DNA from: Candidatus Kaiserbacteria bacterium
Lineage (GTDB): Bacteria > Patescibacteriota > Minisyncoccia > Phycocordibacterales > UBA2100
Assembly: GCA_016214605.1 (NCBI GenBank)
Contig: JACROD010000030.1
Location: forward strand, 1 to 28,581
DNA: 28,581 nucleotides
Reading direction: 5' to 3'
Position numbers and translations under genes: made by a program. The notes beneath the pieces are model-generated. The model searched no databases. It saw nothing but the letters and a program-made list of their open reading frames with translations, and had not been told where the DNA came from. Positions 8,638 through 24,795 of this stretch are shown piece after piece (the stretch's first letter is position 1; every line of letters starts with the position of its first letter).

Positions 8638-8660
8638 TTCTGTAGCACCTCTTTATTTTT
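8622..8660 (+). terminator. rho-independent terminator: stem ggtgctacaga/tctgtagcacc, loop agtaat, then tctttattttt
   Basis: 11-bp perfect inverted repeat plus T-run. It directly abuts the trxB stop on the other strand. Confidence 0.6.
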
Positions 8661-9588
8661 AAACTCCTCGATGCAAAGACACGTAGACATCCTCCAGTGC
8701 CTTTACCGCATCTCCTGCAGCGATGTTGTTTTGGTGGTAGAGACCGTCGGTGCAATCGCCTGCGGCCCAGATGCGCGGATGTGAAGTGTGCTGGGTCTTG
8801 GGGTCGACATTGATCTGACCGATCGGATTCTTGGTGACAGCGTCGCCGAGCCAAGCGGTATTGGGCAAGAGGCCGATTTCGACAAAGATACCGGCCACAG
8901 GCAGAGTCGTTTCGGTGTTCGTCTTCACGTCTTTGTATTTTACACCGCTGACAAACTGTTCGCCTTCGATCGACATGATCTCGGCATTGGTGATAATGTG
9001 GAAATTCTCATGGCTTCTTGCCGCCGCGACGGTGATCTCATCTGCGCGGAAGGTCTCGGTGCGGTTGAGGAGCGACACGGTCTTACAGTAGGCGAGGAGC
9101 TGGAGCACGGTCTCAAATGCTGCGTTGCCGCCGCCGATCACCGCGACGTCTTGGCCAGCAAAGAGCGGGCCGTCGCAGGAAGCGCAGTAAGTGAGGCCTT
9201 TGTTGTCGTGTTCGGCGGCACCGGGCACTTCAAGCTTGCGACGCGAAGATCCGGTCGCGACGAAGAGTGCCTTTGCCTCGTACTTTGCGCCCTTCTGTGT
9301 AGTGACCTCGACATGGGTATCATCCACGGTCGTCTGTGTCGCGGTATCGGGCGAAATGATGGTCAGGTATTCGCCGGTGTGGACCTCGGCATGTGCGCGC
9401 AGACTCTTGGCGAGATCGGCCCCGGAGATTCGTGGTGTGCCGATCCAGTTCTCGATCCCCTCAGAGACGACGCTCTGTCCGCCCCATTCCGAAGTGATAA
9501 AGACGGTTTTTAATTGTTTGCGGGCTGCATAAATAGCGGCGCTGACACCAGCGGGTCCCCCGCCGACAATAATGAGGTCGTAAAGCAT
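8659..9588 (-). CDS. trxB: thioredoxin-disulfide reductase
   Basis: FAD-binding site GGGPAG. Redox-active CASCDG. NADPH-binding site GGGNAA. 309 aa. TAAAAT lies 6 nt upstream of the ATG. Confidence 0.9.
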   Translation of the reverse strand: MLYDLIIVGGGPAGVSAAIYAARKQLKTVFITSEWGGQSVVSEGIENWIGTPRISGADLAKSLRAHAEVHTGEYLTIISPDTATQTTVDDTHVEVTTQKGAKYEAKALFVATGSSRRKLEVPGAAEHDNKGLTYCASCDGPLFAGQDVAVIGGGNAAFETVLQLLAYCKTVSLLNRTETFRADEITVAAARSHENFHIITNAEIMSIEGEQFVSGVKYKDVKTNTETTLPVAGIFVEIGLLPNTAWLGDAVTKNPIGQINVDPKTQHTSHPRIWAAGDCTDGLYHQNNIAAGDAVKALEDVYVSLHRGV

Positions 9589-11359: not shown

Positions 11360-12532
11360 CTATGGAAGGAGAGATTTGAACGTTTGTCGGACGGATTCGC
11401 CCGCGCTGCGCAGGATCTCCTTTATAGAGCTTGATCGGTCCACGGAGTCCTGTGCGTATGCCCAGCGGCAAAGACCGTACGCTACGGCCCATGTGGCGTC
11501 GATGCTCGAAGCGCGTGAAAGCTGGCCTATTGCGCCGATCTGAGAGGGGAGCTTCATGATGGCGCGCGCGACATCGGATGCGTTCATGAATCCGCTGCCG
11601 CCGCCGGTGATGACGATTCCCGCCGGAAGGAGACGCTGGCGGCCGATCAATTTGAGATGGGTATCGACGAGTGTGAACATGGTTTTCAGGCGCGCGGCGA
11701 TGAGCGTGTTCATCTTTTTTTCGGACACATCCGATCCGGACACGCCGCCGCGCTTGAGTTGTTCTGCTTCCGGAAGGGGGACTTGCAGCGAAAGCGCGAT
11801 CGAATTCGTTACATCAGAAGAGCCGGTCGGGAATATCTTGAGCGATATCGGCGTGTCGGCATCGAAGACGATCACCGACAAGGTCTCGGCACCGATGTTG
11901 GCGAGTACTACACCGGCCATCTTTTGCGCTTTGGTGAGCGTGACGAGGCTTGCCGCCAAAGGGGATGCCATCACGTCCTCCACCTCGACTCCGGCAGCCT
12001 CGACGGCATTGATGAGATCTTCGTGGTGTTGGGAGAGCATAGTGATCAAAAGGGTGTCGACAGAGAGTTTGGTGCCCTGCAGACCTTCGGCCTTGCCATA
12101 AACCTTTGCGCCGTCGAGACGGAATTCGAGCGGGATTGTGTGAATGACCGTGCGATTGTTGAGCTTGCCGGAGGCGCGTTTGACGCTTTCGGTCTTGGCG
12201 CGCTCAATATCGCGCTCAGTGACGACACCACCGGACGATGTGAGCGTGATCTCGCCGCTTGAGCGGATCTCATCCATCGAGACGCCGCCGACGGCCACGC
12301 GCGCGCTCTTGACGCGGACCTTGGCGGCGCTGGAGGCGCGCTGAAGAGCTTCTCGAATGCTTTTGATCGCTTCGGCTTTATCTATGATGTATCCGTGGCG
12401 CAGGCCGCGTGAGCTCGACATGCCGGTACCGAGTATCATCATGGGGATATCGGGGCGCTCGGGTGCTGCGGCGATAACGATTTTGACGTGATAGGTCCCA
12501 ATGTCGATACCAGTGTATATCTTGCCTTGCAT
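11360..12532 (-). CDS. ftsA: cell division protein FtsA
   Basis: Actin-like ATPase N-terminus [14 protein letters not shown], with the FtsA domain layout. It lies directly upstream of ftsZ. TATACT lies 8 nt upstream of the ATG. Confidence 0.9.
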
Positions 12533-22303: not shown

Positions 22304-23440
22304 CTAGACGATCGGCTTGAGTGTCATGCGACGCTCCTTGGGTTCGAAGAACGTGATCGTAAAAGGATACACGTTGCCGAGCTGAAGCTTGGAGCGCAGC
22401 TCTTCCTCGGTGCCGAATTCCGATACATGGACCAAGCCCGCGACACCTTCCTCGATGGAGGCCAAAGCGCCGTGTTTGTTGTACTTGATGACCACTGCTT
22501 CGACGCGATCGTCTTTCTTGTACTTGGCACCAGCTGCTTTCCACGGATCGTCCATGAGTGCCTTGATCGAGAGGGATACTTTGTCCTCCTTGACCTCGAT
22601 GACCTTGACCTTGACCGGCTCGCCGACTCGGAAACGAGTCTTGGGATTCTCCACGAGCGCCCAGTCCATTTCGGAGATATGTACGAGTCCCTCGAGACCT
22701 TCTTCGAGCTTCACAAAGACGCCGAATTCGGTGGCACCGGTGACAATCCCGTCGAGTACATCGCCCACATGGTATTTCTCCACGAGACCTGCGCGCTCGG
22801 TCGAGCCTGCACCCTTTTCGGAGAAGATGAGTTTTTGCTCCTTGGGGCTCGCGGTGATGATCATCACTTCGACGGGAGTGCCGACCATTTTCTTGAGTTC
22901 GGCGAAGACCTTGTCCTTGTCGCCGTCGGAGACGCGCGGATAGTGTGCAGCTGAGAGCTGCGAAGCAGGGAGAAATCCGGCGATACCGTTCCAGTTGATG
23001 ATAAGGCCGCCCTTGTTGGCGTCGGTGACGGGGAGTGTAAAGACCGTCTTCTTCTGAAGTGCGGTCTCCGCATCGCTCCACATGAGCGCCTGGCGCGCTT
23101 CACGCAGCGACAGCTCCATGTAGCCCTCGGCGGTCTCGGTACCGACGACCTTGGCGGCGACGATGTCGCCGATGTTCACATTCTTCAGGGTCTCGCGTGC
23201 TGAGAGATACTCGCGCCCGTAGATAATACCGGTCCCAAAGGGATGCAGATCGACGAACACGCGCGCACGGCCGATCGCGATCACTGGTCCTTCGACCATT
23301 TCTTCCATACCCGGCTTCTTGGGCGCTAGATTCATAAGCTCCGCCATCGGCCCTGTTGGTTCGTCTTGGGGCACGACGACCTCAGATTCTTCTCGCATAT
23401 CCGCTTCTAAGACGGCGGAATTCTTCTCTTGTTTTGTCAT
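22304..23440 (-). CDS. rpsA: 30S ribosomal protein S1, short form with 4 S1 domains
   Basis: Repeated S1 OB-fold motifs (GxxVxGxVxxIxxFGxFVxL...). 378 aa, with an acidic N-terminal extension of about 50 aa. Confidence 0.9.
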   Translation of the reverse strand: MTKQEKNSAVLEADMREESEVVVPQDEPTGPMAELMNLAPKKPGMEEMVEGPVIAIGRARVFVDLHPFGTGIIYGREYLSARETLKNVNIGDIVAAKVVGTETAEGYMELSLREARQALMWSDAETALQKKTVFTLPVTDANKGGLIINWNGIAGFLPASQLSAAHYPRVSDGDKDKVFAELKKMVGTPVEVMIITASPKEQKLIFSEKGAGSTERAGLVEKYHVGDVLDGIVTGATEFGVFVKLEEGLEGLVHISEMDWALVENPKTRFRVGEPVKVKVIEVKEDKVSLSIKALMDDPWKAAGAKYKKDDRVEAVVIKYNKHGALASIEEGVAGLVHVSEFGTEEELRSKLQLGNVYPFTITFFEPKERRMTLKPIV

Positions 23441-23798
23441 TGTATATATGACGCTTTGGGTGCTGATCGCCTTGCAACAATGCCTATCGGAGCGACCCGC
23501 CTCCGCATAAAGCTTCGGCGAGGGACCTCAGTGTTAGCCCGTGACGTTCAATTAATAATGAACCGAGAAACTGTATCAAAAAATTACCGAAATGCAAGAG
23601 ACAAATACAAAATAAAAAGGGACTTCATACCTCTTCAGGAAGCGAGTCCCGAAGCTAGTAGAAGTCCCCGATGTATCAAAGGAGAGATTAATCTCTCACC
23701 ATGACCCGACGCCCTTCGTCGGCGGCGAGGAGATATTCATATCCTTACCCTCCCTATAATAAGCACTTGCCCTAGGTGGGTTGCCGGCGCGCCAGCCG

Positions 23799-23936
23799 TC
23801 AGGTGACGGCGACGAAGCCCAGGCGGCCGCCCGCGGCGCCGATGCCGAGATAATGATTCACAAAGCCGATGGTGGAGCCGACGCTGGAAGCGATACGACA
23901 CTCATGATGCCAATGCGGCGGGCCGTGACTGTTCAT
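23799..23936 (-). CDS. candidate small protein (45 aa): His-rich N-terminus (HGPPHWHHEC) followed by a Gly-zipper hydrophobic segment
   Basis: ATG preceded by AGGGAG at an 8-nt spacing. Third codon positions are about 85% G/C, like real genes here. It is below the 60-aa cutoff of the ORF track. Confidence 0.4.
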   Translation of the reverse strand: MNSHGPPHWHHECRIASSVGSTIGFVNHYLGIGAAGGRLGFVAVT

Positions 23937-24027
23937 TCTGAACACTCCCTAGTTGTTGGTTGGAACATACCTTGGTCGTCCGGTCCGACTCTCACGTGTG
24001 AGGGTCCTTCCAGTCCAAAGCTAGAAC

Positions 24028-24055
24028 ATTATGAGCCCCCTATTTTATTTGTCAA
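24028..24055 (-). promoter_or_regulatory. candidate minus-strand promoter TTGACA-16 nt-CATAAT, reading toward the small ORF and rpsA
   Basis: -35 = rc of 24050-24055. -10 = rc of 24028-24033. Confidence 0.35.
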
Positions 24056-24100
24056 GTCCTCGTCTGTATTGTCTTGTTTTGCTTCAAAAATAAGGCTTTT

Positions 24101-24129
24101 TTCACATATCTGAAGCTTCTGCTATACTA
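24101..24129 (+). promoter_or_regulatory. promoter TTCACA-17 nt-TATACT, 6 nt upstream of the ATG of the MBL-fold gene (leaderless-type)
   Basis: Hexamers and spacing read directly. Confidence 0.5.
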
Positions 24130-24135
24130 GGGCCC

Positions 24136-24795
24136 ATGATTCTTACATACCACGGTGGTGCATGTGTGAAGGCGAGTGCAGGGGATACTACTATAGTACT
24201 CGGCCCCGTCTCCAAGGGGTCCAAATCCTTCAAACCGGCCAATTTTGGGGCAAATATCGCCTTTATCTCACTCAATCATCCCGATATGAACGGTACTGAG
24301 GAAGTACGCGGGCGACCCCGTAAAGACGACACCGAAGGTGCCGTCAACGGGGCAGGCAAGGAGCCTTTCATCATCACGGGGCCCGGCGAGTACGAGGTGA
24401 GTGATATCTCGGCTGCGGGTTTTTCATCGGGCTCTGTCTATGGCGGTCATGAGCTTATCAATACGATCTACTCGATCCATTTTGATGGCCTCTCGGTACT
24501 CTATCTTGGCGCGTGCGGCGATGCACAGCTGCCCAAGGAGGTCTTGGAAATGGATGCACCGGATGTGCTCATTCTTCCCGTGGGCGGCAACGGCGCCTTG
24601 AGTCCGGCGGATGCTCAGAAGGTTGCCGTGAAGCTTGAGGCCAAGATCGTAATTCCGATCCTTTATGACGACAAGACGCTCAAAACCTTCCTCAAAGAAG
24701 CGAGTAGCGAAGACGTAAAGCCGGTCGACAAACTCACCATCAAGCCGCGCGATCTCGCAGGCAAAGAAAGTGAGACCATCGTTCTCAGTGTATAA
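24136..24795 (+). CDS. MBL-fold metallo-hydrolase (UPF0173/Lactamase_B_3-like)
   Basis: MILTYHGGACVKAS N-terminus and overall beta-lactamase-fold pattern. 219 aa. Confidence 0.75.
   Translation: MILTYHGGACVKASAGDTTIVLGPVSKGSKSFKPANFGANIAFISLNHPDMNGTEEVRGRPRKDDTEGAVNGAGKEPFIITGPGEYEVSDISAAGFSSGSVYGGHELINTIYSIHFDGLSVLYLGACGDAQLPKEVLEMDAPDVLILPVGGNGALSPADAQKVAVKLEAKIVIPILYDDKTLKTFLKEASSEDVKPVDKLTIKPRDLAGKESETIVLSV

Follow-up and report, generated by a model that had tools for sequence, protein, structure and literature searches.

Organization of the rpsA-MBL intergenic region

The stretch of DNA analyzed here, called the window below, is the whole of contig JACROD010000030.1 (28,581 nucleotides, forward strand) from a Candidatus Kaiserbacteria assembly (GCA_016214605.1), and our subject is the 695-bp spacer (23441-24135) that separates rpsA from a divergent gene of the metallo-beta-lactamase (MBL) fold. 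rpsA (22304..23440, minus strand) encodes ribosomal protein S1, here a protein of 378 amino acids with four S1 domains (Pfam) that is 65-92% identical to the S1 proteins of Candidatus Kaiserbacteria and Paceibacterota genomes. The MBL gene (Lactamase_B_3) occupies 24136-24795 on the plus strand. We compared this locus with 160 related loci, designated L001-L160, of which 80 are genome loci. The approximately 150 nt nearest to rpsA are the only part of the spacer that was matched among them, and it is in this rpsA-proximal part that our principal finding lies, namely a structured RNA leader that precedes rpsA across a clade of the Candidate Phyla Radiation (CPR). For the spacer as a whole, we consider it fairly likely that the 695 bp are a composite of modules rather than a single element. 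The first module would be a promoter that adjoins the MBL start and is probably leaderless. The second, from about 24021 to 23609 on the minus strand, would be an independent transcription unit of ~415 nt between a sigma-70-type promoter and a strong intrinsic terminator. Past this terminator, rpsA would be transcribed from a promoter of its own with a 5′ untranslated region (5′UTR) of ~123 nt.

The MBL-rpsA gene order is kept in 67 of the 80 related genomes, with spacers of between about 150 and 2300 bp. A preliminary description of this DNA had regarded the gap in the window as unusually long for the locus, which, given this range, it is not; the same description had stated that no open reading frame (ORF) of at least 60 codons lies on the rpsA strand between the two genes, and the list of ORFs upholds this. 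mscL is present in the spacer at 14 of the 67 genome loci, on the strand opposite to rpsA, about a dozen loci carry spacer ORFs with signal-peptide-like N-termini, and the remaining contents are unrelated between loci. The upstream unit of the window thus occupies a hypervariable slot, which in other Kaiserbacteria holds mscL, small secreted-looking proteins or nothing. In the spacers of these relatives, a promoter on the rpsA strand usually adjoins the MBL −10 box. When 456 ORFs from the gaps were compared with the window by tblastn, matches were confined to the rpsA-proximal block, and neither mscL nor any other gap gene had left a remnant.

The comparison with L081, whose S1 is 90-92% identical to that of the window, provides a measure of how unevenly the spacer has been kept. 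At four-fold degenerate sites these two loci are 55% identical, which is near saturation. Relative to shuffled sequences, the similarity of the rpsA promoter and leader has a z-score of 35 and that of the promoter of the upstream unit a z-score of 10, while the 5′UTR, the ORF and the 3′UTR of the unit, with z=1.3-1.6, are no more alike than shuffles.

A conserved, structured leader precedes rpsA

Inspection of 131 distinct regions upstream of rpsA revealed a recurrent pattern. It begins with a hairpin that is followed by AUUAUUAAU(U)AAUAG and then by a helix, P1, which has an internal loop. A joiner, either UAAGGCUU or UAAYMCU, connects P1 to a second helix, P2, whose sequence varies freely while its two strands stay complementary (CCCUGC/GCAGGG, CUUCUCUUC/GAAGAGAAG and UCGAGCC/GGCUCGA), and the terminal loop contains ACGG(U/A)(A/U)GC. 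At the 3′ end, 8-14 A/U-rich nucleotides separate P1 from the AUG, and neither a Shine-Dalgarno (SD) sequence nor GGAGG is present.

Two sets of leaders were aligned separately with MAFFT. The 58 sequences of type A, from which covariance model R1 derives, were scored with a hand-derived structure, because RNAalifold applied to the raw MAFFT alignment gave only 10 pairs, with the helices mis-registered. Type B (model R2) consists of 18 sequences and was assembled without the window, L081, L082 and L083. In type A, 77% of cells are paired, compared with 36-50% in slid controls, and in type B the value is 76% compared with 36-47%. In each alignment 15 of the 17 pairs have changed on both sides. 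The covariation scores are 0.39 for type A and 0.45 for type B, in each case against 0.20 in shuffles (0/500). The type B model cross-matches type A leaders, and we therefore treat the two types as one family. R1 matches 59 and R2 44 of the 80 genome loci, and together they account for 68 of the 80. Each of these matches runs along the rpsA strand up to the start codon of rpsA, with none elsewhere in 625 kb; in L070 and L071 the matches end at an in-frame ATG just upstream of the rpsA start.

In the window, R2 has a single match, at 23438-23561 on the minus strand (26.8 bits, E=1.6e-5), and it also finds the leaders of L081, L083 and L082 at the equivalent place. Upstream of this match is a conserved block that reads as an extended −10 promoter, TTGCAT-16-TGaTACAGT (23570..23597, minus strand). 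It is kept in L081, L082 and L001, and with 8 of 12 matching positions it falls under the threshold of our promoter scan. Transcription from it would start at about 23563, so that the 5′UTR would comprise ~123 nt (23441..23563, minus strand). In the RNA a 5′ hairpin (23564-23545) presents AUUAUUAAU. P1 is formed by ACGU..GGG (23547-23538) with CCC..GCGU (23460-23450), the joiner to P2 is UAACACU, and P2 consists of CUG+GUCGCU paired with GGCGA+UCAG, with CCGAUAGGCAUUGUUGCAAG as the terminal loop. P2 is split by an extra hairpin of 34 nt (23529-23496), which the window has in common with L082 (2912-2945) and which is missing from L081 and L001. With the insert P2 becomes a three-way junction in which the window can still form all nine pairs of P2. 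An AU-rich stretch that lacks an SD precedes the AUG at 23440.

Three observations weigh against this assignment. By folding energy alone the leader of the window does not adopt the consensus structure (z=−0.18), the type A model misses it (7.9 bits), and in the alignments, which were used as MAFFT produced them and not refined further, the outer part of P1 is paired in only 66-68%. Nevertheless, the compensatory changes and the position of the matches lead us to conclude that the leader is a well-supported RNA structure of the ribosomal-leader kind, found upstream of rpsA across a CPR clade and so far uncatalogued. It resembles other leaders of ribosomal protein genes, such as those in Rfam and in the 2020 catalogue of Eckert and Weinberg (PMC7247131), in being a covarying RNA that is associated with one ribosomal protein gene only and confined to one lineage. 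It differs from the catalogued leaders in that none of the 4227 models of Rfam 15 matches it, whether in the window, L081, L001, L070, L071 or the type A leader of L040. The matches to Thr_leader and Leu_leader in the relatives are weak, sub-threshold and situated elsewhere. The 2020 catalogue (PMC7247131), searched by term in its main text, yielded no S1 leader, and our literature searches found no description of a CPR rpsA leader.

More generally, the whole window has no Rfam match at gathering thresholds, and a search of 23300-24300 at E up to 10 returned a single match, to a human long non-coding RNA family at E=0.34, which we regard as noise. The preliminary description had proposed such a scan as a means of explaining the region by a known RNA, and no family of this kind emerged. 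Its suggestion of a long structured rpsA leader proved right in part. There is a structured leader, which it had not described, but this is restricted to the proximal ~123 nt (about 23563-23441); the hairpins, palindrome and ORF that it listed would belong to a separate unit beyond the terminator and the rpsA promoter.

The leader as a possible target of S1

What might this structure do? The 5′UTR would fold into a two-helix domain, consisting of P1 with its internal loop and P2, so that the AU-rich single strands that flank it would be brought together beside a start codon that has no SD. By analogy with Escherichia coli, it probably serves to control the translation of S1, and free S1 would probably be what is sensed. 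E. coli S1 has six domains, and the E. coli rpsA leader forms three hairpins. S1 bound to the 30S subunit and free S1 compete at the E. coli rpsA initiation region, and the autorepression requires domain D6 (PMC10931766). Repression in E. coli is abolished when the region next to the AUG is converted to GGAGG (PMC10931766). The operator features that underlie this autoregulation are conserved in several, and only some, gamma-proteobacterial families (PMC10931766), and in the literature that we searched no S1 leader is described outside the gamma-proteobacteria.

The leader of the window shares with the gamma-proteobacterial operator its place in the rpsA 5′UTR, a conserved fold just 5′ of the start codon, the lack of a canonical SD and the AU-rich single strands that flank the helices (PMC10931766). 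Unlike the E. coli operator, to which we saw no homology in sequence or structure, it consists of nested P1 and P2 helices with an ACGG(U/A)(A/U)GC loop, and its CPR host has a four-domain S1. We propose only tentatively, and at somewhat less than even confidence, that the leader is an undescribed autoregulatory S1 operator of Kaiserbacteria and related Paceibacterota, unrelated in structure to the gamma-proteobacterial one. Equally tentative is its corollary, that such an operator would function with an S1 of four domains, from which the one needed for repression in E. coli is missing. The missing counterpart of D6 counts against S1 binding or autoregulation through this leader.

Because S1 has only four domains here and the loop sequence is nearly invariant, we have kept other ligands in consideration. 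The fold could be real without being an S1 operator; it might be a riboswitch, the binding site of another protein, an RNA thermometer, or a structure that stabilizes the mRNA or serves as a ribosome standby site. The data establish the structure and its exclusive association with rpsA, which leaves the ligand to be chosen by other arguments. A near-invariant terminal loop, CGGUAGCG, suggests specific recognition, unlike the loose preference of S1 for AU-rich RNA (PMC10931766), and the S1 of the window has no extra C-terminal domains. On the other hand, in ~1.2 Mb of related loci (both strands) the motif occurs upstream of rpsA only, which fits autogenous control better. Metabolite riboswitches usually serve several gene families. 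Further, in its AU-rich flanks and its lack of an SD the leader resembles the initiation region of E. coli rpsA (PMC10931766). On balance we regard a role other than that of S1 operator as somewhat unlikely, and less so than any of the alternatives that are weighed below for the upstream unit.

A probable separate transcription unit upstream of the rpsA promoter

With its promoter, the small unit spans 24055-23609 on the minus strand. The promoter, TTGACA-16-CATAAT (24028..24055, minus strand), matches the consensus at 11 of 12 positions and had been correctly placed upstream of the ORF in the preliminary description. Its elements ACTTGACAAATA..ATAGGG..(T/C)ATA(A/C)T are kept in L081 and L001. 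From this promoter transcription would start near 24021. The 5′ leader that follows (23951..24021) is predicted by a minimum free energy fold to contain a long imperfect hairpin at ~24021-23969; the 85 nt that precede the ORF cannot be aligned with the leader of L081 (z=1.3). Next come an SD, AGGGAG (23950-23945), and an ORF of 45 codons (23936-23799), which is considered in the following section. A second SD, GGGAGGG (23754-23748), precedes a 14-codon mini-ORF (23740-23696; feature 23696..23754) with the predicted product MNISSPPTKGVGSW.

The stop codon of the mini-ORF overlaps the start of a perfect 16-nt palindrome, GAGAGATTAATCTCTC. The palindrome is located at 23682-23697 and not, as first described, at 23681-23696. 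Chance would give 0.14 matches per window when up to 3 mismatches are allowed. In RNA the palindrome is predicted to fold into a hairpin of 6 bp around a UUAA loop. Beyond it, an interrupted hairpin (GGGGACUUC...GAAGUCCC, ~25 predicted pairs) extends from 23669 to 23619 and is followed by the T-run UUUUUAUUUU at 23618-23609. A GC-rich hairpin thus directly precedes a U-tract, as in an intrinsic terminator (23609..23669, minus strand). The 8-bp stem GGGACTTC/GAAGTCCC, which the preliminary description had noted with coordinates off by one, is at 23619-23626 and 23661-23668 and forms the base of this extended hairpin, after which comes TTTTTATTTT. Because the extended hairpin directly precedes the T-run, we assign this stem to the terminator. 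The first scan for promoters and terminators had overlooked it because of a loop limit of 8 nt. The region 23600-23800 folds with −79.4 kcal/mol (z=−3.85). The long-range complementary segments reported earlier are also present, with an extent of 11 nt at 91% and 82 nt between the arms. All the features of the preliminary description are in fact there, so that as an observation it is essentially right. The palindrome and the hairpins that it noted would make up the 3′ region and the terminator of the small unit.

The units of the relatives are built in a comparable manner. In L081 the promoter ACTTGACAAATA...ATAGGG...TATACT, a leader of ~70-75 nt, an SD-led ORF of 36 codons and a terminator precede the rpsA block. 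L001 (85% S1 identity) has the promoter and a unit of ~190 nt without a comparable ORF. The more distant L070 and L071 have an SD-led mini-ORF of 10 codons after their first ORF (ORF1), unrelated in sequence to that of the window. The units of L081, L070 and L071 all end in a hairpin and a T-run, the latter being TTTTATTTT in L081 and the T-rich CTTTTTATA and CTCTTTTATA in L070 and L071. The unit always adjoins the MBL start and not rpsA, and in L070 and L071 ~1.7 kb with other genes intervene between it and rpsA. L082 (86% S1 identity), with a spacer of 176 nt, has the rpsA promoter and leader alone, so that rpsA expression does not depend on the unit.

These facts bear on the notion of a single long rpsA leader that takes up all of the 0.7 kb, in which translation of the small ORF would control read-through of the terminator. 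As in the attenuators of the trp, thr and leu operons, a short ORF is followed by hairpins and a terminator, and the gene downstream is read from the same strand. The mini-ORF ends directly at the palindrome hairpin, and PP motifs in both ORFs could conceivably pause ribosomes. Unlike in those attenuators, a conserved promoter for rpsA (23597-23570) follows the terminator (23669-23609), and the unit is dispensable in the relatives, which have the same rpsA promoter and leader either without it (L082) or separated from it by 1-2 kb of other genes (L070 and L071). Nor did we find a conserved alternative antiterminator pairing. Attenuation in the manner of a leader peptide was accordingly rejected as a class for this locus and seems to us very improbable. 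Since the ORF, the palindrome and the hairpins are all upstream of both the terminator and the rpsA promoter, we favor a separate transcription unit.

Several short sequences of the unit may be mentioned here. TTTGATACA (minus strand) is present twice, 100 nt apart, once in the extended −10 box of rpsA (23572-23580) and once just past the palindrome (23672-23680); it may be a duplicated fragment of the promoter or a chance repeat. UUCAGAAUGAAC (23931-23942), where the small ORF starts, is complementary at 10 of 12 positions to GUUCAUUAUUAA in the 5′ hairpin of the rpsA leader (23552-23563). A contact between the two transcripts is conceivable, and the match is probably due to chance.

If the unit is transcribed by itself, it might act as a non-coding small RNA of ~415 nt, which would function through its structure or by base pairing, with the 45-codon ORF a by-product of GC-rich sequence. 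The unit has a promoter and a terminator of its own, and its minus strand is more stable than shuffles (z=−2.3 for the whole unit and z=−3.85 for its 3′ part), compared with z=−1.0 for the plus strand. Most of this folding signal is however supplied by the terminator hairpin. A comparison of L070 and L071 also appears to favor RNA, since the indels in ORF1 are not multiples of three while a downstream block of 37 nt, GAATCGCCCCGGGCTGAAGGCCAGGTAAGCGAGAACG (L070:2090-2126, L071:2149-2185), is 100% identical within a unit that is otherwise heavily diverged and interrupted by indels. This block overlaps the 10-codon ORF, M(P/Q)NRPGLKAR, and the constraint on it looks to be at the level of nucleotides. 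Against a small RNA is the absence of any Rfam match to the unit, even at E up to 10. Further, the units of the window and L081 share only the promoter and 21 nt at the start of the ORF, so that covariation cannot be shown. By-eye comparison with consensus features of RNase P RNA, tmRNA, signal recognition particle RNA and 6S RNA revealed no convincing resemblance, and ARAGORN found no tRNA or tmRNA in the window. We judge a small RNA to be unlikely, for reasons that also involve the ORF, and the proposal in the preliminary description of an unannotated small RNA gained no positive support, the ORF being already annotated.

The 45-codon ORF and its predicted peptide

The likeliest product of the small unit would be the peptide MNSHGPPHWHHECRIASSVGSTIGFVNHYLGIGAAGGRLGFVAVT of 45 amino acids, which begins MNSHGPPHWHHECR... 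and is encoded from an ATG at 23936-23934 to a stop at 23801-23799 (feature 23799..23950, minus strand), with AGGGAG 8 nt upstream of the ATG, exactly as had been read by hand. The ORF is already present in NCBI GenBank as hypothetical protein HZC00_05260. Its gene-like codon usage is confined to its own frame. The codon-usage score is 0.42 per codon, close to the median of 0.41 for in-frame windows and above 99.9% of off-frame windows. G or C is found at 76% of its third codon positions, compared with an average of 67% in the genes of the window; the earlier estimate was about 85%. The counterpart in L081, a called gene of 36 codons that is a singleton, scores 0.43, above 99.8% of off-frame windows, when referenced to the genes of its own locus. 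Gene-like codon usage in exactly the SD-led frame at both loci argues against a non-coding RNA, and it would be unexpected if the unit were decayed sequence.

Homologues of the peptide were sought widely. A word-indexed search of 5.8 billion protein clusters and an exhaustive HMMER scan of 1.84 billion representatives returned nothing besides the peptide itself, a scan of back-translated metagenome DNA gave no match, and phmmer against 671 ORFs from the gaps of the relatives produced nothing significant. Pfam has no match to the ORF, nor to the ORFs of 110 and 54 codons that overlap it. Among the queries were a 48-residue version of the small ORF that starts at GTG and the 36-residue peptide of L081, which was padded. 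With this peptide that of the window has only the motif M-x-x-HGPP in common (BLASTP E=0.001). The motif has been kept although four-fold degenerate sites at these loci are only 55% identical. Among the 160 loci and the window there are three ORFs that start with M-x-x-HGPP, each of them in the MBL-rpsA gap and on the rpsA strand.

The third of these ORFs, L071:1976-2107, starts with M-x-x-HGPP(H) and comes from a distant relative (71% S1 identity). It may be a decayed homologue, a case of nucleotide-level conservation or a coincidence. The ORF of the window resembles the orphan small ORFs of the CPR in being short and SD-led, in having its own promoter and terminator and no homologues, and in occupying a variable intergenic slot. 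Unlike a pure singleton, its initial motif recurs at the same position in L081 and possibly in L071, which hints that the M-x-x-HGPP ORFs constitute a small, fast-evolving family.

Other features count against a translated peptide. The length of the ORF is within what is expected by chance, as the overlapping ORFs in this GC-rich stretch, of 54 codons on the same strand and 110 on the opposite strand, illustrate, and combinations of an SD with an ATG occur ~23 times per window on both strands. Beyond residue 7 the peptides of the window and L081 are no closer than shuffles (p=0.21), and the DNA of the two ORFs is likewise at the level of shuffles (z=1.4). These comparisons give no evidence of purifying selection on the peptide, and the conservation of the reading frame in relatives, which had been proposed as a check, largely fails, being limited to the first 7 residues in L081. 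The ORF in L071 has a codon score of −0.24, like that of non-coding sequence. The absence of homologues, finally, is compatible with a small RNA as well as with an orphan gene.

A further possibility is that the unit is neutral filler, a decaying remnant of cargo in an insertion hot-spot, which has no function of its own and might be transcribed from a promoter that is kept for other reasons. The slot is hypervariable in length and content, the unit is absent from L082 and is reduced to 190 nt without an ORF in L001, and no constraint on the body of the unit is detectable when the window is compared with L081. Part of the conservation of the unit promoter could moreover reflect a −35 box shared with the divergent MBL promoter: in L081 (2549-2556) and L001 (3631-3638), at a position equivalent to 24055-24049 of the window, TTGACAA reads TTGTCA on the opposite strand, 18 nt from the MBL TATACT. 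In the window an insertion of ~50 nt (about 24060-24120) parts the two promoters, and MBL uses another −35, TTCACA. Several facts speak against filler. The −10 box and the spacer on the rpsA strand are conserved too, no remnant of mscL or of another gap ORF is detectable in the window, and the codon usage and the retention of M-x-x-HGPP are as described above. We consider filler quite unlikely, more so than a small RNA.

Weighing these arguments, we hold with moderate confidence that the small unit is most likely a fast-evolving, lineage-specific orphan peptide gene. We rejected as unsupported a bacteriocin, to which the peptide had at first been likened, a type I toxin and a ribosomally synthesized and post-translationally modified peptide. 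The sequence lacks a clean transmembrane segment and has its GG 7 residues before the C-terminus, and genes for modification or immunity are absent nearby, the neighbors being rpsA and the MBL-fold hydrolase.

The MBL promoter and probable leaderless transcription

The scan places the MBL promoter, TTCACA-16-TG-TATACT, exactly at 24101..24135 on the plus strand, and GGGCCCTAGTATAGC of this promoter is kept in L001 and L081. Its −10 box ends 7 nt 5′ of the ATG at 24136, and for this reason the divergent MBL gene is probably transcribed as a leaderless mRNA. Most of the 19 long genes in the window lack an SD, and several have a −10-like box (TATACT, TAAAAT, TATAAT or TATCAT) that ends 6-10 nt 5′ of the start codon; the starts surveyed include those at 692, 8659-9588 (minus strand), 11360-12532 (minus strand), 24136 and 25676. 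SDs are found mainly on genes that have 5′ leaders. As judged from these motifs, the survey suggests that leaderless mRNAs are widespread in this Kaiserbacteria genome.

Implications

Taken alone, the small ORF and its hairpins are unremarkable, being an orphan unit of one lineage, placed in a slot of variable content and already annotated as a hypothetical protein. The leader of rpsA is of wider interest. To our knowledge few non-coding elements are known in CPR genomes, and the leader motif would improve the annotation of these genomes. It would also provide a handle on how the translation of S1 is controlled in uncultured bacteria with reduced genomes, in which many mRNAs are apparently leaderless, and on what a four-domain S1 recognizes.

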